Positions 1,283-52,922 of a DNA stretch of 64,000 bases are shown here, in pieces. A program made the translations under genes and the position numbers. The stretch comes from an uncultured Gammaproteobacteria bacterium. GTDB taxonomy: Bacteria > Patescibacteriota > Microgenomatia > UBA8517. The notes beneath the pieces were generated by a model that was given only the letters and a program-made list of their open reading frames with translations, made no database searches and was not told the origin of the DNA. Location: contig CAYSEQ010000001.1 of NCBI GenBank assembly GCA_964430475.1, positions 13,659 through 77,658 of the forward strand, given 5' to 3'. Every line of letters starts with the position of its first letter. Position 1 is the first letter of the stretch.

Positions 1283-1733
1283 TTGGAGAAAATACATAGA
1301 GAAACAATTAATCGTACTATGAAAATTTATTTTTCAGGTTCAATTAGGGGTGGGCGTGATGACCAAAAACTTTATGTTAAGATTATTGGTTTGCTTAGTA
1401 AGTACGGTGAGGTTTTGACAAAACACATTGGAGATAAAAATTTGTCTGCCTTGGGGGAGAGTTATTTGACAGATGAAGTATTTACGAACGCGATATAGGT
1501 TGGCTTAACGAAGCTGATGTTGTGATTGCTGAGGTAACAATGCCGAGCTTGGGTGTTGGTTATGAGATTGGAAAAATCGAAGGAAAAAAGCCGATACTTT
1601 GCCTTTATCGAAAGCAAAGAAGTAAAAGATTATCCGCTGTGTGATTGCTGGAAATAAAAATTTGAAATTAAAGGTGTACAAGAATATGTATGAGCTTAAA
1701 AGAATTATTAAAAACTTTTTTACGAATTTATAA
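1283..1733 (+). pseudogene. 2'-deoxynucleoside 5'-phosphate N-hydrolase (DNPH1/Rcl)-like gene split into three reading frames
   Basis: Segment 1 reads MKIYFSGSIRGGRDD...GEVLTKHIGD. Segment 2 (another frame) reads [54 protein letters not shown]. Segment 3 (third frame) reads [31 protein letters not shown]. The three together match the DNPH1 fold end to end. The shifts sit next to a G5 run (~1452-1456) and a gtgtg dinucleotide repeat (~1636-1644). Confidence 0.55.
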
Positions 1734-1740
1734 AAAACTT

Positions 1741-2905
1741 TGACCTTATTATTATCGGCGGTGGGGCAGGAGCGTTCGCGGCAGCAATCCGAGCCAATGT
1801 GCTTGATGCAAAAACCACTCTTGTCAATAAGGGACTACCTCTTGGTGGCACATGCGTCAATGTTGGGGTGTGTTCCGTCAAAAACGCTTTTCTATGCCGG
1901 CGAGGTATTACAACGGGCGTTATACCACGGGGTTCCTGGTATTGAACATGAGGTGAAAAAATTTGATTTTCAAAAAGTTGTGCAAGATGAATTCTTACTT
2001 GTAGAAAAATTACGGAAAGAGAAGTATGAGAAAGTACTAACAGATTTAGAAAATGTAACCTTTATTGAAGGGGATGGGCAAAATTAGTGTCTCAAAATGA
2101 AGTTGAGATTAATTCGGAATAAAACAGTCAAGTGTATAGGATTCAAGGCGAGAAATTTATTATTACCACAAGTTCTAACGCTAATATCCTACCGATTGAG
2201 AATATCCGTGATGTTGGTTACCTGACTCACATAGAAGCCCTGAAACTTGAAAGACGGCCAAAAAATTGATAGTTGTAGGTGCAGGACCCTTGGGCTTGGA
2301 ATTTGCTTGAGATGTTCTCGCACTTTGGTCAAAAGTAATAATTTTACAGCGCGGCGATTCAATTCTTTCCCGTTTAGAAAAAGAGCTTACCAACAGACTT
2401 ACTGAAATACTTATTAAGGAAGGTATCATTATCAAAGCTAATGTTGAAGTAAAAAGTGCCAGCAAGGATAGTGACAAAAAGGTTATTTCCTATTCAATAG
2501 GCGGAGTACAAGAGGAAGTTTACGCGGATGAGATACTTTTGGTGGCTGGCAAAACGCCAAATACTCAAGGCCTTGGTCTTACCAAGGATGAGCAAATGAA
2601 GCAAATGGGTGTGTGCCTGCCGTACGCTTTCTTTTGAGGGTGTGCCTAAAGCAATTATTATGCGAGCTACTTTTGGACTTATCAAAATGTCGGTTCATCC
2701 TCAAACAAAGCAAATTTTAGGTGTCCACATTCTTGCGCCAAATGCTGGTGAAATTATTACCGAGGCGATGATGTTAATGAAAAATAAAAACACGATTGAT
2801 GATGTTGTAAATTCCCTGCCGGTATTTCTGACGCTATCTGAGGCAATAAAGCTTGTTGCTCTCTCATTTATTAAAGACATTTCTAAATTAAGTTGTTGCA
2901 TATAA
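1741..2905 (+). pseudogene. merA: Mercuric reductase merA remnant with multiple frameshifts and in-frame stops, and no start codon
   Basis: [42 protein letters not shown] then a frameshift at a G4 tract, then [13 protein letters not shown]... Downstream fragments are in other frames: GYLTHIEALKLERRPKKLIVVGAGPLGLEFA*DVLALWSKVIILQRGD...LLVAGKTPNTQGLGL...HPQTKQILGVHILAPNAGEIITEAMMLMKNKNTIDDVVNSLP...KLSCCI*. It has the redox CxxxxC and the C-terminal vicinal CC that are hallmarks of MerA. At least five lesions are present. Confidence 0.7.
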
Positions 2906-2913
2906 ATAAAAAT

Positions 2914-3272
2914 ATGAAAAACGACGACAGGATATTTCTTTAAATCGGGATTACGAGTGCCTTTCTCGCATCGCTTTGCTGTCTAGGATCTCTTATTCTT
3001 ATTGAACTTGGATTAGGCAGCGCTTCAAGCTTTCTTTCTATCGGGTACAACAAACCATATTTTCTAATCGGTACACTTATTTTTTTGCAGCTACTTCTTG
3101 GCTTTATTTTAGAAAAAAAAGAATGCAGTTTGTGATTGCGAGGATGGCTCGGAAAAACTCGCAAGTAAAAAGATGGCGGGTACAGATTGCCATCGCTTTT
3201 TTTACAATGCTCACGCTTTATTTTTTTTCTGACATTTGTACTCGTATCATTTCTTGCGCCATTAGTTTATAG
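2914..3272 (+). pseudogene. merT: Mercuric ion transporter merT-like remnant (in-frame TAA at 2941-2943 plus downstream frameshifts)
   Basis: MKNDDRIFL*IGITSAFLASLCCLGSLILIELGLGSASSFLSIGYNKPYFLIGTLIFLQ aligns to the MerT TM1 Cys-pair motif (LASACCLGPLVLIALG). The C-terminal TM helix IAIAFFTMLTLYFF continues in another frame. Confidence 0.5.
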
Positions 3273-3288
3273 ATATCTTTACTAGCCT

Positions 3289-3697
3289 ATGAACAAAACT
3301 TTTATTTTTGTACTAGTCGCTCTAGTGTTCGTTGGTAGCATTGTCTTTCGTCTAGCAACTCATAACACCAACTCCACCAATACAAAGCAAATGATGAAGT
3401 TAGACAACTTGCGTCATGCAACACTTAAGATTGACGGTATGGATTGTGTCTCCTGTGCTTACAATATAGAAAATGCTCTTAAGGATACACCTGGTATCGT
3501 AAATGTTTCGGTTGGGTTTGTTGGGGAGAAAGTAGTAAGCGGAACTGGCGAGGGACGAGGTTATTTACGATTCTACAAAAACAACCTCGGATAAAATAAT
3601 CTCAAAAATTTTACCTTACAAGGGAACACTCCTAACCGAACAAAACACCAATAATAGTGTGGAGCTTACGCCACTTCCTAAAACATTTGGTTTTTAA
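3289..3697 (+). pseudogene. merP: merP-like periplasmic heavy-metal-binding (HMA) protein, frameshifted near 3540-3560
   Basis: Signal/TM segment then LKIDGMDCVSCAYNIENALKDTPGIVNVSVGFVGEKVV (GMxCxxC). The rest of the HMA fold, VIYDSTKTTSDKIISKILPYKGTLLTEQ, continues in the +1 frame to a stop at ~3697. Confidence 0.5.
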
Positions 3698-7673: not shown

Positions 7674-8072
7674 TTATGCCAGTTTGTAGTTTTTTAAAAT
7701 TTGCCACAATCCCCATTGGATTGTATTCATTACTAAACCCAGAATTATTGCCCAAAAAAATCTTGAAATGCCGAATCCCGAAAATTCAGCTACCCTTGCG
7801 AGAATCCATATCGTAATCGAATTTGAAGCCCAATAGAATATGAAATTTTGCGCTTCACCTTCAAGTTTTAATCCAATTTGGGTGATTACGGGTTTGGAAA
7901 ACCAAACGATAAAAGTAAGCCAAGCTCCTACCCAGAGAAAAGCCAAGTTTTCCGGTATAGTCGCGCTACCCAATTCGAAATTCCTCGGAAGAATTAAACT
8001 TGAAAGGTAAAATATCGTGGAATTTGCCAGCCAAAATATTATGTATGGAATGTATCTTTTAACCTCTTGCAT
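7674..8072 (-). CDS. Hypothetical integral membrane protein
   Basis: 132 aa with 4 predicted TM helices. Confidence 0.35.
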   Translation of the reverse strand: MQEVKRYIPYIIFWLANSTIFYLSSLILPRNFELGSATIPENLAFLWVGAWLTFIVWFSKPVITQIGLKLEGEAQNFIFYWASNSITIWILARVAEFSGFGISRFFWAIILGLVMNTIQWGLWQILKNYKLA

Positions 8073-8180
8073 TCTTTTTGAGTGTCTTTATTTTTAAGCT
8101 TATGATTAAATTAGATTTTTGTCAATATTATGAGATGATGATGATTAAGAAATTCCAAATTCCAAACAAATTCAAGATAC

Positions 8181-8240
8181 AAAATTCTAAATTCTTAATT
8201 CTTAATTCTAGATTCTATATTTTTGATTCTTGGTTCTAAA
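8181..8240. repeat. Partial inverted copy of the AT-rich intergenic repeat family (aattcttaattcttaattctagattc)
   Basis: Reverse-complement similarity to the gaatctagaatcaagaa...aagaatcaagaattt arm of the repeats at 13285 and 35610. Confidence 0.4.
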
Positions 8241-8416
8241 ATTTTTAACTTTTAACTTTGAACTTTTAAATTTTTTTATAGGATCGAAAGCTATATTTGC
8301 GCCTATAATATTTGTGAAAATGTGGGCATTTATGTTTAAAAGGTATTAAACTTATAAAACTAAAATATTGTTAGTGAGGAATTGACGAGTTTGTAGTAAA
8401 ATACATCATAATAAAC

Positions 8417-8506
8417 GCCGAGGTGGCGGAATAGGTAGACGCCCGGGCCTTAAGAGCCCGTGTTGCAACTAGCAACGTGTGGGTTCGAGTCCCACCCTCG
8501 GCACCA
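8417..8506 (+). tRNA. tRNA-Leu (anticodon TAA), type II with long variable arm, CCA encoded
   Basis: GCCGAGG...CGGGC-CTTAAGA-GCCCG...variable arm TGTTGCAACTAGCAACG...GTGGG-TTCGAGT-CCCAC-CCTCGGC-A-CCA. Confidence 0.8.
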
Positions 8507-8710
8507 AAACCCGCAAAAATTTTTCTTTCATTTTCTTTTAGGAAGCGCGCGCAAAATCCGCCGAAGGCGGACAAAAAGGTAAGAAAATTTTTGTGGGTTT
8601 TGTTCTGCGCTAAACGCGCAGGCGGAGCCGCTCCCTCCCTCACCGCGCCTTCGGCGCGGAAACAGACGGGCAAAAAGGAAGGGGGTCTGGGGGAAGGAAT
8701 TTTTGCCCGC

Positions 8711-8753
8711 CTGCTTGGATTTAACTCTGAAAAATTGGAGCGGAGGCGGAACA
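8711..8753. repeat. Left 43-bp inverted repeat bounding the arsenic cassette
   Basis: ctgcttggatttaactctgaaaaattggagcggaggcggaaca. Its reverse complement at 12054-12096 is identical except for 2 mismatches. Confidence 0.7.
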
Positions 8754-8825
8754 CATTAAAAAGTCGTCCTTGCCCCACCACATCCGTGCGCAGGCGACAA
8801 CAAGGAACTCCCCAAAATCTTACGA

Positions 8826-9074
8826 TTAACCGCAACACCCTCCGCCCGGATTGCAACCGCCAGCACGGCTTCGTAAATTCTTGACATAGTTGTCGAAATC
8901 AAAACTCTCCTTTTTTGTCGAACTCGTTTGCCTAAACTCGTCGCATTCAGAACCGCATTCGGAACATTTTGCCACGCGCTTCCAGCACGGGCCGTAAATG
9001 GAACTTGTATATTCCCGTTTTAGTCCCTCAGCTTCAAAAACCTTTTGACACTTTTGGCAATAGAATTTGTCCAT
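8826..9074 (-). CDS. FmdB-like CxxC...CxxC zinc-ribbon protein with a Gly/Cys tail (…GGCNPGGGCCG)
   Basis: Likely start is the ATG at 9074 (MDKFYCQKCQKVFEAEG...CSECGSEC...), 4 nt after the stop of the upstream gene. The longer ORF-track start at 9161 would overlap the upstream gene. Confidence 0.45.
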   Translation of the reverse strand: MDKFYCQKCQKVFEAEGLKREYTSSIYGPCWKRVAKCSECGSECDEFRQTSSTKKESFDFDNYVKNLRSRAGGCNPGGGCCG

Positions 9075-9078
9075 ATTT

Positions 9079-9438
9079 TTAGCCGCAACATCCGCCGCCG
9101 CCCGCAAAAGGCACGCCGGTAATGGCGGTAAGCTGATTACAAATTTTGCGCGCCAGAGCAACAGCGGTATTTTGTGCTCTTAAATATTCCATGCAAATTT
9201 CATTTTGTCTCATTTTTGCCTGCGCGTCGCGAAGTTCTTGCTGTTGTTCAATGGAAACCGGCAGGCCGTTTTGCTGTAAAATCGCAATAGTTTGTATTCG
9301 TTCTTGAACATCCTGAAACACATTCAATGCGCTTTTATCATTTTCCAGTTTTTCAGCCGCTTTTTGGAATCTGATAAACTCCGGCGTCTGCTTAATATAA
9401 TCGCTGAACTCTTTAATTTTTTGATCTAAATTGTTCAT
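9079..9438 (-). CDS. YheA/YmcA/YlbF-like (UPF0342) helical protein with the same Gly/Cys tail (…FAGGGGCCG)
   Basis: 119 aa. IKQTPEFIRFQKAAEKLENDKSALNVFQDVQERIQTIAILQQNG...EYLRAQNTAVALARKI is the YheA-like pattern. Confidence 0.45.
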   Translation of the reverse strand: MNNLDQKIKEFSDYIKQTPEFIRFQKAAEKLENDKSALNVFQDVQERIQTIAILQQNGLPVSIEQQQELRDAQAKMRQNEICMEYLRAQNTAVALARKICNQLTAITGVPFAGGGGCCG

Positions 9439-9470
9439 AGTGTGTTGATTGAATTATGGCTTTTTCTTTA

Positions 9471-11333
9471 TTATTGTTTTCCATAAAGCATATAACCAGC
9501 AATTTTTAGTTTCTCTTTTCCGATCAAGTCATCGACCAAAAGCGGTAATTTTACAATCGGCGCAGTGAACCTTTTATCCATTTCCGCAAGATATTTTTCC
9601 TCCATCGCCTTTCTTTGTCTTAAATAATCGTTGGTTATTATGGATTGCGGCAAAATAAAGTTTGCCACCACCAAGCTTGTGGGGACGCCGATGGTTAAAA
9701 GCTCTTCCATAGCGCGAGCCGCCTCTTCAATTGGCGTGGACTCCGGATACATCACAAAACTGAAAGTTGTTTGATTGATGTCTTGCATCATATCAATTAC
9801 TTCCTTAAAACGCGACTTGGTTATTTTATCAACCTCTGTTTCGCCGGTTGAAGTAAAAGTTTTGATCTCTATCTGTTTACTCCAATCAACCGGCAGCTCC
9901 AATAACCGCAAGGTGTGGCCGGTCGGGGCAGTGTCAAAGATAATTACTTCAAAATCTTTACGAGTCGCGAAATCAATAAATTTTTCAAAAGTAGCCATTT
10001 CTTCAGTGCAGGGTGAATCAAGTTCTTCTTCAATCGCGGATACTCTTTGTTTGTCATATTTTTGTCTTGCTTCTGACAAAATTTTTTCTTTGTATTCTTC
10101 GGTCGCCTTCTTGGTATCAATGTTGGCTGCCCATAAATTTGTTTCTCCATTTACTGCCGTCGGCTCGCCTGAAATTTCTTGCTCGAAGACCTGATTTAAG
10201 TGAGAGGCCGGATCAGTTGTTAAAATCAGAGTTTTGTATTTTTGTTCTGCCACCCAAATGCTGGTTGCCGCCGCAACCGAGGTTTTGCCTACACCGCCCT
10301 TGCCCGCAAAGAAGATCGCCCGTCTTTTTCCATTTTGGGGGACAAGCAGCTGTTTTATTCTTTCGTCTATTTTGGGGAAATTATTCCTTATTATCTTTGC
10401 TTTATCCACATCAACTTTTAACGGCTGATAGTCGCTTAATTTTAGGGCTTGTTCGTGAAGCTTTTTGCCTGTTTGAAGTAGTAGTTTTTTACCTTTGATT
10501 TCATTCGGCTCTAGCTCCATCAAGGTTATGGGAACGGAAAACTTGTTTTTGATAAGTTCCAAAAATTTCTGCTGTTTGGCAAAGCGAGCGAGCATAAAAG
10601 GATTATCGCAAGCACTTTTTGGATAAATGCCGTTGATAATGAGCTCTTGCGAGTTTATTTTGAGTTTCAAAAGTTCGGCGATTGAACGTTCCGCTTCATA
10701 AATAGGCGTAACTTCCGGGCGCAGGACAAAAACAAAAGTGGTTCTGGAAGTATCGCGCATTGCCGCAATCGCTTGGTCAAATTTAGCCTTTGACTCAGCT
10801 AGCGCGGCTGCCGGACCGATGCAGGTTTGGCCGCCGCCTTCTTCTTTGGCGGCTTTTTCAATAACCCCGCTCCACTCTACGGGTAGTTTCAAAAGCCGCA
10901 GCGTATGTCCAGTTGGCGCAGTGTCAAAAATGACTATGTCGTATTCCGGTTCTTGCAAAAAATCAGTAAAGCGGTCAAAGGCGGCCATTTCGGCGGTGCA
11001 GGGCGAATTTAGTTGTTCTTCTAAAACTTTAAAACTTTCAATCGGAATTAAGCCGCGCAGAGGAGATAAAGTTCGCTCTTTGTACTCGGCAGTGGCAATA
11101 TCCGGGTCAAGTTCCATGGCAAATAAATTTTTTATGCCATAGATTGGAGTAATTTTGTGTCCTATTTTTTGTTCAAACACATCGGCGAGATTTGACGCAG
11201 GGTCAGTGGTAATAATAAGCGTTTTCTTGTTTTGGCTTGCAAAATAAGCCGCACTGAAAGCGGCCATCGTGGTTTTTCCAACGCCGCCTTTGCCTGAAAA
11301 GAAATAAAATTTTGTGTTCATATTATTTTTCAT
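9471..11333 (-). CDS. arsA: Arsenical pump-driving ATPase ArsA (tandem A1-A2 halves)
   Basis: Two P-loops GKGGVGKTT/GKGGVGKTS and two DTAPTGHTLRLL motifs. Metalloid-site Cys motifs SPCTAEMAAFDRF and SPCTEEMATFEKF. Start taken at the internal MKNNMNTKFYFF; the track's 5' extension overlaps arsD. Confidence 0.9.
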   Translation of the reverse strand: MKNNMNTKFYFFSGKGGVGKTTMAAFSAAYFASQNKKTLIITTDPASNLADVFEQKIGHKITPIYGIKNLFAMELDPDIATAEYKERTLSPLRGLIPIESFKVLEEQLNSPCTAEMAAFDRFTDFLQEPEYDIVIFDTAPTGHTLRLLKLPVEWSGVIEKAAKEEGGGQTCIGPAAALAESKAKFDQAIAAMRDTSRTTFVFVLRPEVTPIYEAERSIAELLKLKINSQELIINGIYPKSACDNPFMLARFAKQQKFLELIKNKFSVPITLMELEPNEIKGKKLLLQTGKKLHEQALKLSDYQPLKVDVDKAKIIRNNFPKIDERIKQLLVPQNGKRRAIFFAGKGGVGKTSVAAATSIWVAEQKYKTLILTTDPASHLNQVFEQEISGEPTAVNGETNLWAANIDTKKATEEYKEKILSEARQKYDKQRVSAIEEELDSPCTEEMATFEKFIDFATRKDFEVIIFDTAPTGHTLRLLELPVDWSKQIEIKTFTSTGETEVDKITKSRFKEVIDMMQDINQTTFSFVMYPESTPIEEAARAMEELLTIGVPTSLVVANFILPQSIITNDYLRQRKAMEEKYLAEMDKRFTAPIVKLPLLVDDLIGKEKLKIAGYMLYGKQ

Positions 11334-11631
11334 TGATAAATTTCTTAAGCTCTTCGAGCGTGGGGTATGAGCCGGTTTTAACGACTTTTCCGTCACAAGT
11401 AGTAATTGGCAATGCTTTCAGCTGTTGTTCTTGGATTAGTTTTATTACATCCGGGTTTTCCTTGAATTTTTGAGGACTTTGAGTAATGAGCCACCGTTCG
11501 ACTTCCACGCCTAACTTTTTGACTTTTTCCAATGTATCCTGCAAATTGATAAGCGTTTGATCCGGGTTCGGCCCGCAGACGCCGGTTGAACAGCACATCG
11601 GAGGATCATAGATAACGATTTTATTTTTCAT
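11323..11631 (-). CDS. arsD: Arsenic metallochaperone / repressor ArsD
   Basis: MKNKIVIYDPPMCCSTGVCGPNPDQ, the ArsD CCxxGxCG motif. 102 aa. Confidence 0.85.
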   Translation of the reverse strand: MKNKIVIYDPPMCCSTGVCGPNPDQTLINLQDTLEKVKKLGVEVERWLITQSPQKFKENPDVIKLIQEQQLKALPITTCDGKVVKTGSYPTLEELKKFINEK

Positions 11632-11965
11632 AATTTTTGGTTAACTGACGACAAACATCATGCGAAGTGCATGGTTTATCGGAAATATTGTTAGAATTTA
11701 AAATTTTTTGGTACAAACTCTCCAACTCTTCAAATTTTTTCTTATTCAAGGAGCAATGCACCCACCTCCCGACCTTTCTGTCTTTGATAAGCCCGGCTTC
11801 TCGCAATGTCTGCAAATGATGGGACACGAGTGTTTGTTCCAAACCCAATTTTTCCGCCAGTACGCAAACGCATTCTTCGCCCCTCATTAAACACAGAACG
11901 ATCTTGTATCTGTTCTTGTCAGATAAAATTCTTATGTAGTTGAGTAATTTTTCGTTTTCCTTCAT
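11621..11965 (-). CDS. arsR: ArsR/SmtB-family metalloregulator
   Basis: HTH with the ECVCVL metal-sensing motif. Overlaps arsD by 11 nt. Confidence 0.85.
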   Translation of the reverse strand: MKENEKLLNYIRILSDKNRYKIVLCLMRGEECVCVLAEKLGLEQTLVSHHLQTLREAGLIKDRKVGRWVHCSLNKKKFEELESLYQKILNSNNISDKPCTSHDVCRQLTKNYEK

Positions 11966-11980
11966 TTTAATTGCTATCTG

Positions 11981-12010
11981 TTAATATGTGAATCCACATT
12001 CATATATTAA
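11981..12010. promoter_or_regulatory. Candidate ArsR operator: 8-bp inverted repeat TTAATATG-N14-CATATTAA upstream of arsR
   Basis: The palindrome sits 16-45 bp upstream of the arsR start codon. Confidence 0.4.
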
Positions 12011-12053
12011 TCCTTGCCGCAATCAATGTCAAGTGGATTTTTCTTTAAACTTT

Positions 12054-12096
12054 TGTTCCGCCCCCGCTCCAATTTTTCAGAGTTAAATCCGAGCAG
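12054..12096. repeat. Right 43-bp inverted repeat bounding the arsenic cassette
   Basis: Reverse complement of 8711-8753 (ctgctcggatttaactctgaaaaattggagcgggggcggaaca). Confidence 0.7.
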
Positions 12097-12224
12097 CGGA
12101 GCCGCGGGGTGGGTCATTCCGCGAGCGAAGCGAGCGGCAATCTTCCAATTTTCAGGAATTTTCGGTAAAATAAGTTCGAGCTTGGTTGTATAGATACACA
12201 TAAGATTAGTCACTTTATTTGATC

Positions 12225-12297
12225 CGGGGTGTGGCTCAGCTGGTAGAGCGCACGGTTTGGGACCGTGAGGTCCCCGGTTCGAATCCGGGCACCCCGA
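12225..12297 (+). tRNA. tRNA-Pro (anticodon TGG)
   Basis: CGGGGTG...CACGG-TTTGGGA-CCGTG...CCCGG-TTCGAAT-CCGGG-CACCCCG-A. Confidence 0.8.
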
Positions 12298-12507
12298 CAC
12301 ACAACAAAAGGAAATTTAAATTTTATTCTTTATTCTTTATTCTTTATAATAAGAGATTCTGAATTAGACAAAGAGAGATTTGAATCCTCGTATTCCAAGA
12401 CCCAAGCTTTATTCAGATGTTCAGATTTTTGGATCTAAAGATAGAGTTCAAGGCCAAAAGAGAGGAAGATTTTAGTCATTTTCTAATTTAAAAAGTTTTT
12501 TGTTTTT

Positions 12508-13128
12508 TTACCGCGTAAATAAGCCTCTGAAGATTAGGTTTATATTTTGCCAAACTTTGTTTATCATATTTGAGCTTCTTAAGTCTTGAATCCCTAATGT
12601 GTTTGAAAATGAAGTTATCGGTGGGGTGACTGATGGAGCTATTCCCTCAACCTTGACACTTAATGTATCAGTTGCCGCCTGATTTTCCCGCCATTCTACT
12701 CTGACTAAGGCTTGGTATAGTCCTTCATTTTTGTAGTCACATATATCTTTCACAGAGTAAGTAGTAAAGAGGGTAATTTTTTCGTGTTCATATTGACCAT
12801 TGCTTTCACAATCAAACCTATAGCGAATTAAACCTGGACCCCTAATTCCAACTTTGGCAAGTAGGTCAACACCTGTTAGCGGTGCTTGCCCTGATATTCC
12901 ATTTGAATTCCAGGAATCCTGAGAACTTACTCTTCCAAGGAGAAGAACTCTGCCTTCAATAATTTTAGAACTTTCATTTTGTTTTGCTTCAGGGAAAGCA
13001 ACCAGTAGCCTTTGCCTATTCTTAACTAAGGACAAAGTTGTCGCAAGCGTTGTGGTAAAAAGAATTACGGCTAGTAAGCCAAAGATTACGCCTAAATGCA
13101 CAATTCCATTATTGTGTTGATGTTTCAC
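12508..13128 (-). CDS. Hypothetical membrane-anchored secreted protein
   Basis: 206 aa with an N-terminal TM helix. No family recognised. Confidence 0.35.
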   Translation of the reverse strand: MKHQHNNGIVHLGVIFGLLAVILFTTTLATTLSLVKNRQRLLVAFPEAKQNESSKIIEGRVLLLGRVSSQDSWNSNGISGQAPLTGVDLLAKVGIRGPGLIRYRFDCESNGQYEHEKITLFTTYSVKDICDYKNEGLYQALVRVEWRENQAATDTLSVKVEGIAPSVTPPITSFSNTLGIQDLRSSNMINKVWQNINLIFRGLFTR

Positions 13129-13284
13129 TCTAAATTTATTCTAATTAGATTTTTTTAAAAAGTCTATAGCATCTTGGACTTTGTGCTTTTAAGGTGGCAC
13201 CGACCTGAAAATCAAAGCTTGAAAAATCAAAAAAAGTGACAAACAAATTCATTTTTAGGAATTAGGAGTTGGTATTTTGGGATT

Positions 13285-13445
13285 AGAATCTAGAATCAAG
13301 AAGCAAGAAGTAAGAATCAAGAATTTTTAATCATTAATCATTTTTTTATAATTTTGGATTTTGAAAATTTGAATTTGTTTAGGATTTAGAATTTAGGATT
13401 TGGAATTTTTCTAGGATTTAGCTTGTCTGCCGACTAGACAAAAAA
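13285..13445. repeat. AT-rich intergenic repeat element, copy A, in a divergent promoter region
   Basis: aagaatcaagaatttttaatcattaatca...ttggattttgaaaatttgaatttgtttaggatttag...ttctaggatttagcttgtctgccgactagacaa. About 115-150 nt are near-identical to 35610-35760. Contains the hairpin TTGTCT-N7-AGACAA. Confidence 0.6.
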
Positions 13446-13556
13446 TTTAGAGATTAGAATTTAACACTTAGGATTTTGAGTTTCAAACTTTACTTATAAG
13501 TTATACCGTCTCAGTTGAGAAATATGCTTTATTTCATCTTAAACTCATAAATATAT

Positions 13557-14006
13557 TTGACAACTGGATTCTGGTGCCCTATAATACGAGCCTGTATGAA
13601 AAGAAAGTTGATTGTCTTTATTTTATTTTTGGCTGTTTTGGTATTCCTAAATTTTGCTCAACTTAATTTTCTTAAAGTTGAAGCAAAAAGTAATTTTCCT
13701 TTAACAGGGCCGATTACCCAACCTGTTACATACTTTATTAGAGGGTTCGTATTTTAAAGAGCCTTTGGATGGATAAGGCCTGCTAGTGGTGCGAAGGTTC
13801 AAGCTACTAATTTAGTGACCCATGAGCAAATTGCTACAGAAGTTTCCCAAAATGGAAGCTACGCGTTAGGGATTAATAAACCCGGTTTTTACAAAGTTAA
13901 AGCATACGATACGCGTGGGACTATTTTTAGACCTTTATTAAGATTCGTACGGATAAATGACCAAGATGTCAACGGAATAAACTTCTTTGGTATTTGGGTA
14001 AGATAA
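13557..14006 (+). pseudogene. Carboxypeptidase-regulatory-like domain protein interrupted by an in-frame TAA (13755-13757)
   Basis: ORFs 13557..13757 and 13815..14006 are in the same frame and separated only by the TAA. The joined sequence ...PITQPVTYFIRGFVF*RAFGWIRPASGAKVQATNLVTHEQ...YALGINKPGFYKVKAYDTRG fits the G.V.D..G.P..GA.V...G.Y.L...PG.Y.V pattern. Confidence 0.4.
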
Positions 14007-14096
14007 TTTAAAAACTACTTTATTCCTCCTCTTTCCCCTGCACTTAATTGTATTTCGTAATATATAAAAGTTGTATTTTTGTGTAAAATCTAAGAT

Positions 14097-15181
14097 GTGT
14101 TGAGATTATTGATTTCACTTCTTATCTTTTGGCTTCCTTTGGTTATTTTTCCTTTTGGAACTTCGCCTTTTGAAATTCCTAAGGTCATTGTTGCCCAGGT
14201 ATCAATAGAGGTTCTTTTTTTGGCATGGCTTTATAAAAAAAGATGGAACTTTAAAAAGATTTTTGATCTTGAAAAACTTCCCTTTCAGGGCTTGATTATT
14301 TTAAGCCTAATCCATCTTATCTTCTTGGGGAGGGAGACATCATTTTTTGGAAATATTTTCCGATTACAAGGTATTTTTTTACTTTGGCACCTTATTCTAT
14401 TCTCCTATATTTCTAGTTCAATAAAAATTTACCAAGGTAAGAAATTTATTTTTATTCCTGCTATTCTTCTTTCAATATTGAGTTTTGTTTTTAGTGTTGA
14501 TAAGGCGGGAAGGTTTATGTTGTCTCTGGGAGAACCTAATGCCTTTGCTTCTGTGTTGGTTTTTTCTACCCATTTTTACTCTTCACACTTAAACGCCAAA
14601 AATCAAAAATCTGGAAAATTATTTTATTTTTGTGGATATTTACCCTTATTCTTTTTTCGGGCTCACGATCTGGGTTGATTGCGTTTTTATTGGAGAACTT
14701 GTTCTTTGCCATCACTCATAAATATAAACTTGGAGTTAGAAGCGCTAGTATTTTGATAATGATTCTACTTTTTACTAGCCTTTTTTTGCCTTTGATTCAA
14801 AAGAAAAAGATTTGGGAAAATAGGACTGAAATTTGGAGTACAGCACTTGCTGCGGGATTAGAAAGACCAATCTTGGGCTGGGGTTTTGGGAATGTGGAAT
14901 TTGCTCTTAGAGAAACTTCTTTTTTACTAAAAAATAATCTTCGCTTTCAGTATGTTGATAGTAGCCATAATCTGATTTTAGATTATTGGGTCCAGGGAGG
15001 AATTGTTGGTGTTATCTTGATTTTATATCTTATTTTTCTTACATTTAAGAAATTTATCTCAAAAAAAGATAGGCTGAGTTTAGGGGTTTTCTTTGGGGTC
15101 TTAACAGTGCTACAATTTAATCCTGTAAGTGTTGTTACATCGATACATTTCTGGTGGCTTATTGGGAAGATGTTTAGGTAA
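14097..15181 (+). pseudogene. O-antigen ligase family (Wzy_C/WaaL-like) membrane protein, frameshifted near 14600-14630
   Basis: Two overlapping ORFs in different frames. The second carries the signature GSRSGLIAFLL...HNLILDYWVQGGIVGVIL. The shift lies in an A-rich stretch (aaaaatcaaaaatctggaaaa). Confidence 0.5.
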
Positions 15182-15227
15182 TTTTTGATTGCCTTAAGGA
15201 GGTAAATTTAGTAGAATAAAGATCATT

Positions 15228-15298
15228 GCGGGTATAGTTGAATGGCTCAACGCCACCCTTCCAAGGTGGAAATGCGGGTTCAATTCCCGCTACCCGCT
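15228..15298 (+). tRNA. tRNA-Gly (anticodon TCC)
   Basis: GCGGGTA...CCACC-CTTCCAA-GGTGG...GCGGG-TTCAATT-CCCGC-TACCCGC-T. Confidence 0.8.
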
Positions 15299-15333
15299 CC
15301 TTGTTTAATTAAAGAGGAAATAAGAAACCTAAT

Positions 15334-35609: not shown

Positions 35610-35800
35610 TTAGAATCAAGAATTAAGAATCAAGAATTTTTAATCATTAATCATTTTTTATAATTTTGGATTTTGAAAATTTGAATTTGTTTAGGATTTA
35701 GGATTTAGGATTTGGAATTTTTCTAGGATTTAGCTTGTCTGCCAACTAGGCAGAGATTTAAAATTTAGGGTTTCTTAATCATTAATCATTTTTTGAAAAT
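35610..35800. repeat. AT-rich intergenic repeat element, copy B, directly upstream of lexA
   Basis: Near-identical to 13285-13445 over about 115 nt. Carries the hairpin TCTGCC-N5-GGCAGA at the place where copy A has TTGTCT-N7-AGACAA. Internal 20-bp direct repeat ttaatcattaatcatttttt at ~35641 and ~35776. Confidence 0.6.
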
Positions 35801-50524: not shown

Positions 50525-51989
50525 ATGAATAAAAGTTTTCTCTTGAGCATATTGACAGTTGGTTTGGTAAGCATCGTCGCTTTTCGGCTTACATCCTCGT
50601 TTTTTTCGATATTGAAACCTCGCGTGACAATAGCCTCACAGCAGGCGAGCTAGATTTAAAAATAGACAATGTAAGTTATTTAAACGGTTCACTAAACTCC
50701 GGAACAACTTGGCCAACACCCATTGATTTGAAAAATAAACTCTTTTTTGATTTCAAAGATTTAAAACCTAGCGATTACGGCGAAGACACTATCTCTCTTC
50801 GCGCAGGAAACGATTATTGGCTGTGCATGGACATGGAAATATCTAAAGACGATGATGAAACCTGCACTGAACCCGAAACTCAAGATGATCCAAATTGTAG
50901 CGAACCTAACAATAATAATTTTGACGGTGAATTAGGAAGTTTAGTCAATTTTGTCTGGTGGCCGGATGACGGAGACAATGTTTTGGAAGATGATGAAACT
51001 CCATTTATTGATGTAAGTTCCGCTTCTGCCTCTCTTAATCAATCTGTCGCACTTGCTGATACAACTCACAACCTTTGGGGAACGCCCGGAACTCCTCTTT
51101 CGCCAACGAAAACTTACTATATCGGCAGGCTTGGTGTTTTGGAACCCTAACCCTTTCTCCTCTTTCCCAAGATGGAGTTGGCAATCAAAGAAGTCCGGCA
51201 GGAGATAATAACCAAAATGGGAAAAACGGCGAACCTCAAGATGGCGGATTTTTATGCGATGGCGCGTATATTGATAACGCAAGTCAAACTGATGTTTTGT
51301 TGGGGAATATTGAATTTAGAGCGGTTCAAGCAAGAAACAACAAAAACTTTACTTGTGAAGAGACAGACTTATCTCCAACACCCACGCCTTCTCCGACTTT
51401 AGCCTGCGCTCAGGCGGATGTCATGCTTGTTTTGGATAGAAGCGGAAGCATTAACCCAACTGAACTTAGTCAGCTCAAAACCGCCGCCAAAGCCTTTATT
51501 GACGCGCTTGGTCTATCAACATTTGGCATCCATGCAGGCTTCTCAAGTTTTGCAACTAATGGAACTCTCAACCAGCATTTGACAGATGATAGTTTAACGG
51601 TTAAAAGCGCAATTGATGCACTCGTCTCAGGCGGTTTCACCAACCTAAAAGAAGGGCTTGATCTTGCCAGAAATGAACACGCCAACCCCGGGGATGGACA
51701 TGATAGGGACGATTCAACTTCTCCCGACAAGGTTATTGTAATTACCGATGGTCATCCGAATAGACCCTTGCCATCCGACACTGCCGATGATGCTGCTGCT
51801 TCCTCCGCTGATGCTTATTGGGCGGATGGTGCGGAAATCTTTGTGGTAGGAGTGGGAAGTGATGTTAACACAACATACCTTAAAAACGAAATTGCAGATC
51901 CAGACGATCCCGGAGAACAACATTACTACTCTATCACAGATTACTCAGGTCTTGAAAATTTGCTTAAGAATCTTGATTTATGTCAATAA
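50525..51989 (+). pseudogene. TasA/camelysin (SipW-cognate signal) family protein fused to a C-terminal vWA domain, interrupted by two frameshifts
   Basis: Signal peptide MNKSFLLSILTVGLVSIVAFRLTSSFF in one frame up to a T7 tract (~50600-50606). The next frame reads FDIETSRDNSLTAGELDLKIDN...FFDFKDLKPSDYGEDTISLRAGNDYWLC, which is the AFFSD...G.LDL...LKPGD class motif. A second shift at ~51127-51135 leads into WCFGTL...GFLCDGAYIDNASQTD...VMLVLDRSGSIN... (vWA MIDAS DxSxS). Confidence 0.6.
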
Positions 51990-52049
51990 AAATTTTTTTT
52001 AGGCTTGATATTTAAAATTTAATATCTTTTTTAAAAAATTAGAAAGGAG

Positions 52050-52922
52050 GTGAGAAAAATGCGAAGGATACTTTTAAGCCTTTTATCAATCGGCGCGGTA
52101 TTGGCTGTTTCTGTTTTTGCCTCGCAGGCATTTTTTAGCGACACCGAAACCTCAACCGGAAATATCCTGCAAGCTGGCGCAATAGATTTAAAGATTGATA
52201 ATACAAGCTATATAACCGGACCTGATGGGAAATTAGTGAAAAGTGAAAGTACGACTTGGGAACTCGCTGATTTGTCAGGGCATCTTTTTTTCGATTTTAG
52301 TGATCTTAAGCCAGGAGATCTGGGCGAGGACACCATCTCAATTCATGTAAACAATAACCCCGCCTGGCTTTGCGCAGCAGCAAGGATAACCGAGGATTCG
52401 GATGTTGATTATACCGAGCCGGAGCTTGAGAGCGATACAACTGTAAATCCAACACCAACACCTCCAGGACTCGGAGAGTTGGATGACAATATTGAGATTG
52501 CCTTCTGGGCGGATGATGGAGACAATGTTTATGAGCAAGGAGAACAAATATTTCTTCAGGGTTTAATTAGCCAATTAGGACAAAGCGGTAAAATTGCCCT
52601 TGTTGATTCAACCACAAACATTTGGGAACAAACTCCTTCTCCCTTCCCAGGAGGCCAAACTCGCTACATCGGCAAGGCTTGGTGTTTTGGGGATTTAGTG
52701 CCATCAGCAGTTCCTCAGAGCAATGGAGGTCCATTAGAAGGGGATCCACCTCGAGGTACTGGATTTACCTGTGATGGGGCAAGTAGTATCAATAACGCCG
52801 CCCAAACAGATATGGTTAAAGGCGATATCCAGTTTTACGCTGTTCAGTCAAGAAACAACGCCAGCTTTACTTGTAGTAGTTGGACTCCTGTTTGGCCAAC
52901 ACCAACACTAACACAAGAATAA
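52050..52922 (+). CDS. TasA/camelysin-family (peptidase M73-like) secreted protein with a SipW-cognate signal peptide
   Basis: MRKMRRILLSLLSIGAVLAVSVFASQAFFSDTETSTGNILQAGAIDLKID...FFDFSDLKPGDLGEDTISIHVNNNPAWLC... The C-terminal half is paralogous to 50525..51989 (GFTCDGASSINNAAQTD...AVQSRNNASFTC). Confidence 0.65.
   Translation: MRKMRRILLSLLSIGAVLAVSVFASQAFFSDTETSTGNILQAGAIDLKIDNTSYITGPDGKLVKSESTTWELADLSGHLFFDFSDLKPGDLGEDTISIHVNNNPAWLCAAARITEDSDVDYTEPELESDTTVNPTPTPPGLGELDDNIEIAFWADDGDNVYEQGEQIFLQGLISQLGQSGKIALVDSTTNIWEQTPSPFPGGQTRYIGKAWCFGDLVPSAVPQSNGGPLEGDPPRGTGFTCDGASSINNAAQTDMVKGDIQFYAVQSRNNASFTCSSWTPVWPTPTLTQE

Follow-up and report, generated by a model that had tools for sequence, protein, structure and literature searches.

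Insertion sequence (IS)-derived non-autonomous elements that carry passenger genes are generally considered to depend for their movement on a cognate enzyme acting in trans, which for mobile insertion cassettes is the transposase of a related IS (PMC3129680), and the described examples include mobile insertion cassettes (MICs), MIC231 of Bacillus cereus, Tn3-derived MICs and TIMEs, and integron mobilization units (PMC5444012, PMC4337579, PMC4133298). The dif modules of Acinetobacter are bounded by inversely oriented pdif sites for XerC/XerD, can invert, and are target sites for certain IS (PMC13141974, PMC10132070); they are moved or inverted by the chromosomal XerC/XerD recombinases and lie on Rep_3 plasmids in alternating arrays (PMC13141974, PMC10132070). 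Here, these systems are compared with a locus on a 64,000-nt stretch of contig CAYSEQ010000001.1 (hereafter the window), in which a five-gene arsenic-resistance cassette lies between the genes for tRNA-Leu(TAA) and tRNA-Pro(TGG) and is flanked by a near-perfect inverted repeat. The analysis supports a foreign block inserted between the two tRNA genes, and the repeat appears to be a well-preserved part of longer, mirrored flanks carried by the cassette itself.

That the block is foreign and inserted is supported by the outlying third-position GC content (GC3) of its genes, by an empty site in a relative, and by the presence of the same module in unrelated contexts. The two tRNA genes, which the initial annotation had placed on either side of the ars block, were both found by ARAGORN and Rfam: tRNA-Leu(TAA), with an encoded CCA, on the plus strand at 8417-8506 as the left neighbour of the insertion (Rfam tRNA, 57.7 bits), and tRNA-Pro(TGG), also on the plus strand, at 12225-12298 as the right neighbour (70 bits). 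At a permissive threshold, Rfam returned only these two tRNAs from the region 8000-12700, and the GC-rich flanks of the cassette matched no known RNA family. Both tRNA genes have orthologues in L019, a rather distant relative and the only one on which the empty-site comparison rests, where tRNA-Leu(taa), tRNA-Pro(tgg) and tRNA-Gly(tcc) follow each other consecutively and just 71 bp separate the first two; two nearby window genes have orthologues there as well, those for a 132-aa protein (62% identity) and a GTPase (60% identity). In the one relative available, the junction is thus cassette-free, and the arrangement seen in the window does not appear to be ancestral. The window retains the tRNA order of L019 (Leu at 8417, Pro at 12225, Gly at 15228), the intervals being enlarged by 3.7 kb and 2.9 kb of additional DNA, respectively. 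Beside each of the two tRNA genes bordering the cassette, an AT-rich, native-like spacer of approximately 33 nt has been kept, the sum being close to the 71-bp spacer of L019; on the right, this remainder of the native tRNA spacer, recognised by its composition (27% GC), is found at 12192-12224.

The surrounding sequence is low in GC (~36%), with scattered tRNA genes and housekeeping genes such as uvrABC, lexA, ruvC, glycolysis genes and dnaE. The GC content of the cassette genes ranges from 0.37 to 0.46, compared to 0.36 for the genome, and their GC3 from 0.41 to 0.46, compared to 0.296 +/- 0.037 (maximum 0.387) for 34 background genes (z = 3.1-4.6). All five genes lie above all 34 background genes in GC3, in agreement with the GC-richer block described initially, and the non-coding flanks constitute the GC-richest DNA of the whole window (0.50-0.69 by block).

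The same module was recovered elsewhere. One other contig encodes an ArsA with 97% identity to that of the cassette, and many contigs encode homologues with 83-87% identity; at source, some of these are annotated as Parcubacteria/Paceibacterota, which belong to the Candidate Phyla Radiation (CPR), and a single one as Omnitrophica. Since the closest source-annotated ArsA relatives are Parcubacteria/Paceibacterota, the cassette was assigned to the CPR, of which the host is probably a member as well. At the DNA level, the cassette is 77-92% identical in seven further loci (L010, L011, L012, L013 and L014-16) with unrelated neighbours, among them a different tRNA cluster for L010, a copper/metal island for L011 and an IS110 remnant for L013. 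The comparisons clearly point to a module shared across several CPR lineages. Using the cassette and the arm of its repeat as queries, 72,556 plasmids yielded nothing relevant, ArsA gave nothing against viral contigs, and nothing specific was found in the literature on a CPR arsRDA module.

The inverted repeat was confirmed at the positions originally reported, with two mismatches: the cores at 8711-8753 and 12054-12096 are 43 nt long and agree at 41 of 43 positions (95% complementary), and when one indel is allowed, the repeat extends to 8707-8753 and 12054-12099 (46/47). A 31-mer of the repeat, searched with up to three mismatches, occurs at these two sites only in the window, with none expected from 100 shuffles, which places the repeat far beyond chance. 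The left arm (8707..8753, core 8711-8753) follows directly after the operon terminator and the right arm (12054..12099, core 12054-12096) lies 21 nt upstream of the -35 hexamer, and the arms accordingly bracket the operon from promoter to terminator. In a MAFFT alignment with L013 and L024, the latter being a third cassette represented by its 3' part only, the left arm is homologous to the first post-terminator flank segment of both.

According to the initial annotation the inverted repeats delimit the cassette, a claim that the flanks contradict, as GC-rich DNA, parts of which are homologous to the flanks of sister cassettes, continues beyond them. Outside the left arm lies a GC-rich (63%) chain of hairpins (8603..8706), and further out a 32-nt GC-rich (69%) piece (8541-8572) with the hairpin TCCGCC-GAAG-GCGGA. 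A motif found just outside the upstream arm of L013 occurs in three copies in this left flank, one of them in the 32-nt piece (GGCGGRCAAAAAGG) and two in the hairpin chain, where L013 CCTTCCTTTTTGCCCG matches window 8667-8682 at 16/16 positions (Smith-Waterman score 33, compared to 13.7 +/- 2.0 for shuffles). When folded as single-stranded DNA, the region 8500-8830 gave a z of -4.2 relative to shuffles. On the other side, the GC-richer (50%) outer right flank (12100..12191) is homologous, when read outward, to the distal 3' flank of L024, with the core AAAATAAGTTCGAGCTTGGTT matching at 19/21 positions (Smith-Waterman score 40, compared to 16.0 +/- 2.3, and reached by 0/300 shuffles); the opposite orientation was not significant, and the orientation of the match is the one expected for mirrored ends. 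Among the flank parts, a distal block, AAAATARGTTCGAGC, is situated beyond the terminator-proximal segment, the next segment outward and the GC hairpins. Cassette-associated foreign DNA was found to reach approximately 95-170 bp past each arm, to ~8541 on the left and ~12191 on the right, and because it runs past both of them, the 43-bp arms are subterminal at best.

The 32-nt piece at 8541-8572 is itself enclosed by AT-rich 30-nt hairpin arms (8505-8534 and 8573-8602) of native-like composition (24-27% GC, 80% complementary), which start at the last bases of tRNA-Leu, and it gives the impression of a short GC-rich stretch that was inserted into a native hairpin loop. A target-derived palindrome is possible for this small piece inside the AT-rich hairpin only. 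For the 43-bp arms, an origin from the target, by insertion into a pre-existing palindrome, was considered and rejected, since they are homologous to cassette flanks in other genomes.

The sister cassette L013 has a repeat of its own. Its DNA is homologous to window 8768 to 12034 (79% identical), with the homology ending just inside both arms, and it carries a 38-nt inverted repeat (37/38), one arm of which lies immediately upstream of the promoter and the other immediately downstream of the terminator; the contig ends exactly at the latter. The repeat occupies the same two places as that of the window, with a sequence that looks different, and aligning all flanks showed the L013 arm to be the next segment outward from the one equivalent to the window arm. 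Inward, the L013 repeat continues in degenerate form, with one hairpin replaced by a different hairpin and then conserved GCGCCGCC. Searching viral contigs with the core of this repeat gave no match. Between L013 and L024, identity in the 3' flank amounts to 85% across 55 nt (28 identical bases included), compared to 80% for the adjacent coding sequence. The arms are 95-97% alike within a cassette, while homologous segments are approximately 70% alike between cassettes; this within-cassette likeness together with between-cassette divergence points to gene conversion between the arms or to selection for complementarity. Thus, the cassette family carries long, hairpin-rich, mirrored flanks, in which the upstream flank is an inverted copy of the 3' flank and different patches have been kept near-perfect in different lineages. 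The 43-bp repeat is the best-preserved piece of such flanks, cassette-borne rather than target-derived, and is probably functional.

As a side observation on L013, its positions 157-1258 contain an IS110-family transposase pseudogene (DEDD_Tnp_IS110 and Transposase_20), which is broken into three open reading frames (ORFs) and ends approximately 40 nt from the upstream arm. Members of the IS110 family often target transposon ends, repetitive extragenic palindromic (REP) sequences and attC sites.

Our preferred explanation, to which as a whole we would give an even chance, is that of a horizontally acquired cassette with cassette-borne mirrored flanks that was probably moved in trans, by a mechanism that is proposed here. 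The stretch of ~3.65 kb (roughly 8541-12191) is a self-contained, horizontally acquired arsenic module, with its own sigma-70-type promoter and its own terminator, of a kind that circulates among CPR (Patescibacteria) bacteria, and its place of insertion is a short spacer within the conserved cluster tRNA-Leu(TAA)-tRNA-Pro(TGG)-tRNA-Gly(TCC). Its terminator-side arm represents the native 3' flank of the cassette family and the promoter-side arm an inverted copy of it, while in L013 a different, neighbouring piece of this flank has been retained as a near-perfect repeat; within a cassette, the arms would be held alike through gene conversion or selection, and between cassettes they would diverge. 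Of this, the data show the foreign origin and insertion of the block, its repeat, the homology of the flanks and a second cassette with a repeat, whereas a role of the flanks in mobility is inferred. Most likely, the mirrored flanks would act as ends for movement or recombination in trans by an enzyme encoded elsewhere, in a process that would resemble the movement of MICs or Acinetobacter dif modules, and the IS110 pseudogene against the L013 arm fits such an IS-targeted or trans-mobilised picture. A bolder version, in which the locus would exemplify a so far undescribed type of recombinase-less CPR cargo cassette with long, hairpin-rich terminal inverted repeats evolving in concert, inserted into tRNA spacers by a host-encoded or otherwise unlinked enzyme and with the pump-less arsRDA-YlbF-Zn-ribbon module as the first cargo to be recognised, is rather doubtful; so understood, it would be analogous to the Xer-driven dif modules, but would use other sites and be chromosomal.

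A number of observations weigh against movement of the cassette by its flanks. No transposase, integrase or invertase was found in the block, as had been stated initially, nor did any turn up outside it among the window's 41 larger ORFs (40 of which were scanned, a 364-aa GTPase being judged by its Pfam matches and by alignment). Direct reading of the outside sequences, ...GGAATTTTTG(CCGC) on the left and (CGG)AGCCGCGGGG... on the right, revealed no direct repeat between them, and there is no target-site duplication immediately outside the inverted repeats, at either arm, or at any plausible boundary. The repeat has no further copy in the window, and scans that required an exact 20-mer or BLAST-level similarity recovered no true copy from 596 Gb of species-representative genomes, JGI metagenomes, IMG/VR or the plasmid set; a 20-mer core was matched in two genome, five metagenome and one viral sequence, and in the seven genome and metagenome matches the similarity ends at the 20-22-mer, marking them as chance. 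Of the original description as a MITE-like (MITEs being miniature transposable elements with inverted repeats), repeat-bounded cassette, the real inverted repeats and the lack of an internal transposase therefore stand, whereas the MITE-like character is not shown, the repeat not being multi-copy in the collections searched, no target-site duplication or parent IS was found, and the arms are not delimiting. Furthermore, the flanking repeat is absent from the homologous ars cassettes L010, L011 and L014-16, and L017 (ArsA 87% identical) is flanked not by an inverted repeat but by a direct repeat of a terminator hairpin (AACCCGGCTCA..TGAGCCGGTGTTTTT), at 1-32 and 3247-3277. Because of these cassettes, the mirrored-flank architecture may be limited to a sub-family that ends with the zinc-ribbon gene, and the complete cassettes for which both flanks were examined number two, the window and L013. 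Finally, direct arm-to-arm comparison of the window and L013 was marginal, with a score of 21 that was reached by 3/1000 shuffles and a non-collinear orientation; it was not relied on, the positional homology in the MAFFT alignment being better evidence. In L017, a structured leader comes next, together with a methyltransferase gene that may be arsM-like.

Much of this evidence would also suit a passive origin of the repeat, which would be left over from a local inverted duplication of the 3' flank, or be the decayed stump of a longer palindromic duplication, and have no role in movement; the cassette would have entered by homologous recombination at the tRNA genes, following uptake of DNA that came from a related CPR cell, or through an integrase that was since lost. 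With a conserved tRNA gene on each side, the block has suitable anchors for homologous recombination, and the lack of a target-site duplication, of a recombinase and of other copies of the repeat, the several homologous cassettes devoid of any flanking repeat, and the foreign DNA reaching beyond the arms would all be accounted for. A functionless duplication should, however, have decayed along with the surrounding non-coding DNA, while the window and L013, which are only 79% identical, each keep a 95-97% complementary repeat at the same positions, and the flank shared by L013 and L024 is as conserved as coding sequence. We rate this origin below our preferred explanation but consider it quite possible. 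It is improbable that the arms serve to make the operon invertible, by homologous or site-specific recombination, and thereby change its orientation with respect to tRNA-gene read-through. In favour of this, the two arms are inversely oriented, span 43-47 bp and are tight around the promoter-to-terminator unit, the operon is now antisense to both tRNA genes, and inversion between inversely oriented sites has been documented in Acinetobacter dif modules (PMC13141974). On the other hand, a single orientation is present in two assemblies that are 100% identical, no invertase was found among the ORFs scanned in the window, and flipping an operon that has its own promoter and terminator would be without obvious regulatory effect. 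The orientation of the flanks, which had first suggested an inversion, is equally explained by mirrored flanks; a past inversion of the operon, proposed because the promoter-side flank matches the 3' flank of L024, was dropped since mirrored flanks predict the same orientation.

An assembly artefact, in which the graph path switched between organisms or strains at the conserved tRNA genes, would explain why both junctions are at tRNA genes, well-known sites of chimera formation in the assembly of metagenomes, and why the shift in composition is abrupt. The same join is nevertheless seen in the NCBI contig P0001 (166,662 bp, with an identical ArsA and apparently the source of the window) and in a 36-kb Logan contig, the latter showing 100% identity with the window across the 12 kb that were compared, and approximately 33 nt of AT-rich, native-like spacer separates each tRNA from the GC-rich block. 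As a chimera would, in addition, still presuppose that a very closely related genome carries the cassette between this pair of tRNAs, we regard an artefact as highly improbable. Practically negligible is the likelihood that the repeat arose by chance or represents an intergenic motif common in the genome: the intergenic DNA is generally repeat-rich, which is all that speaks for this, but 0/100 shuffles gave even one match, there are two copies in 64 kb and no true copy in the collections searched, and the AT-rich heptamers that make up the native intergenic repeats differ greatly from it in sequence. The cassette-borne, mirrored flanks thus remain our preferred reading of the repeat.

The five genes of the cassette form a single minus-strand transcription unit in the order arsR-arsD-arsA-ylbF-like-Cys-rich small protein. 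ArsR, ArsD and the two-domain ArsA of an arsRDA-type operon are all present in this unit according to Pfam: the 114-aa repressor ArsR (11621..11965; PF01022, ArsR/HTH_5, E=3.1e-15), the 102-aa metallochaperone ArsD (11323..11631; PF06953, E=1.8e-32) and the 616-aa arsenite-stimulated ATPase ArsA (9471..11321; PF02374, E=2e-147, two stretches). They are followed by a 119-aa protein of the YlbF/YmcA family with the C-terminus GGGGCCG (9079..9438; PF06133, E=7.8e-15) and an 83-aa Cys-rich, zinc-ribbon-like protein with the C-terminus GGGCCG (8826..9077; sub-threshold Zn_ribbon_8, E=0.15), the latter belonging to a small family with 9 invariant Cys in ~83 residues (8 homologues). The earlier calls of arsR, arsD and arsA and their order were thereby upheld, and the gene called yheA-like belongs to the YlbF/YmcA family, while the fmdB-like call finds only the sub-threshold Zn_ribbon_8 match. 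Two further ORFs, 8477..8884 (plus strand) and 12007..12300 (minus strand), share the peptide LLGFNSEKLER only by reading through the arms, as had been recognised from the start; since they also run through the tRNA genes and have no Pfam match, they are considered spurious.

The region upstream of arsR (11966..12053, minus strand) contains the promoter TTGACA-17 nt-TAATAT at 12032..12004 (10/12 in the promoter scan) and the dyad ATATGAATGTGGATTCACATAT, which from its sequence appears to be an ArsR-operator-like site, and the alignment showed that this region is kept in the sister cassettes. At the end of the operon, a terminator-like hairpin with a T5 run is predicted at 8757..8806 (minus strand). 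It is conserved with L013, conservation between the two cassettes running approximately 65 nt beyond the stop codon of the last gene, although it was not called by a simple terminator scan. In the two closest cassettes, L012 (2259-2623) and L013 (3950-4369), an arsC gene of the low-molecular-weight phosphatase type is situated between arsA and the ylbF-like gene, and relative to these it has been cleanly deleted from the window across a 5-nt overlap (9452-9456). No ArsB, Acr3 or ArsP pump was found in the cassette or among the 41 larger ORFs outside it. The combination of ArsD, ArsA and two Cys-tailed small proteins in a pump-less window suggests a thiol-based metalloid-handling set with a presumed membrane partner. 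In L020 (269-730), and likewise in L021 and L022, two tandem zinc-ribbon paralogues are followed by a separate ArsR-thioredoxin-ArsP permease-DsbD operon, and the family of zinc-ribbon small proteins therefore associates with several arsenic modules.

Other features of the window concern its tRNA genes, metal-resistance genes and composition. The tRNA cluster is a plasticity zone. Its Leu/Pro/Gly block (8417-15300, compared to 5968-6517 in L019) is inverted relative to the flanking genes for a LytR_C protein and the 132-aa protein, and the 2.9-kb interval between tRNA-Pro and tRNA-Gly contains a 206-aa ORF without assigned function as well as a Wzy_C O-antigen ligase in two pieces (14097..14678 and 14630..15181). 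Adjoining tRNA-Arg(tct) (982-1056), a decayed mercury-resistance locus at 1700-3600 includes two merA fragments, namely ORF 1740..2087 with the redox motif GCVPSK and ORF 2609..2905 with a Pyr_redox_dim fragment and CC at its end, together with an HMA/MerP-like gene (3289..3594); with it, another remnant of metal resistance adjoins a tRNA gene, at a distance of 5 kb from the ars cassette. GC content is also raised (0.45-0.48) in a further patch at 51000-52900, which comprises a VWA-domain gene and a neighbouring ORF of no known function and may also have been acquired. AT-rich heptamers (AAATTCT / AGAATCA / TTTATTC) form intergenic tandem arrays at 8150-8274, 12322-12347, 13285-13408 and 35612-35720; the arrays at 8150-8274 and 13285-13480 are mutually inverted, and the Logan contig that matches the window stops inside a heptamer array, at 13340.

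To our knowledge, little is known about gene movement between the tiny CPR genomes, and we are aware of few recognisable transposons, plasmids or integrases in them. If it is by its flanks that the cassette moves, their sequence would serve as a signature with which to locate more CPR cargo cassettes, and would offer a route to the enzyme; if they are inert, the locus would be an ordinary small genomic islet. The presence of ArsA and ArsD without a pump, along with two small proteins with Cys-Cys tails, also raises the question of what ArsA energises. Operons of the arsRDAB(C) type are exemplified by plasmids R773 and R46. With these classical operons, the cassette shares the arsR-arsD-arsA order and an ArsR-type operator overlapping the promoter; it differs in lacking an ArsB, Acr3 or ArsP pump and in the deletion of arsC relative to L012 and L013, and the YlbF-like and zinc-ribbon-like Cys-tailed proteins stand in for the usual downstream genes.

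With regard to its surroundings, the cassette resembles tRNA-associated integrase islands in being resistance DNA of foreign composition beside tRNA genes, but it has no integrase, lies in the spacer between two intact tRNA genes and comprises only 3.7 kb, and no direct repeat of tRNA-Leu or tRNA-Pro sequence was found in its flanks. It also differs from an integron gene cassette, being a five-gene unit with its own promoter and with repeats 3.3 kb apart, and on inspection no GTTRRRY core was found at the arm ends. With the dif modules it has in common that these are discrete accessory or resistance modules without a recombinase of their own, bounded by inversely oriented sites and found in many contexts, and their targeting by IS may be compared with the IS110-family remnant against the arm of L013. 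Unlike them, the cassette is chromosomal and solitary, set between tRNA and housekeeping genes, and in place of 28-bp 11-6-11 sites with XerC/XerD half-sites it has arms of 43-47 bp in which no 11-6-11 dyad was seen on inspection. Only a GTTAAAT resembles the outer XerD half-site of the dif consensus, and the window contains neither the dif site nor the Xer proteins of this organism. Inspection of the arms for Xer/dif-like, attC-like and tRNA-att-like structures found nothing convincing.

Like the MICs, the cassette consists of passenger genes between inverted repeats with no transposase inside. In contrast to them, it shows no target-site duplication, no identifiable IS with ends that match its arms and no second copy in the collections searched, its foreign DNA runs past the arms, and the sequence of the arms differs between sister cassettes, unlike a conserved transposase-binding site. 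The locus is thus a variant on the known theme of recombinase-less cargo cassettes, encountered in a lineage in which mobile DNA is poorly understood.

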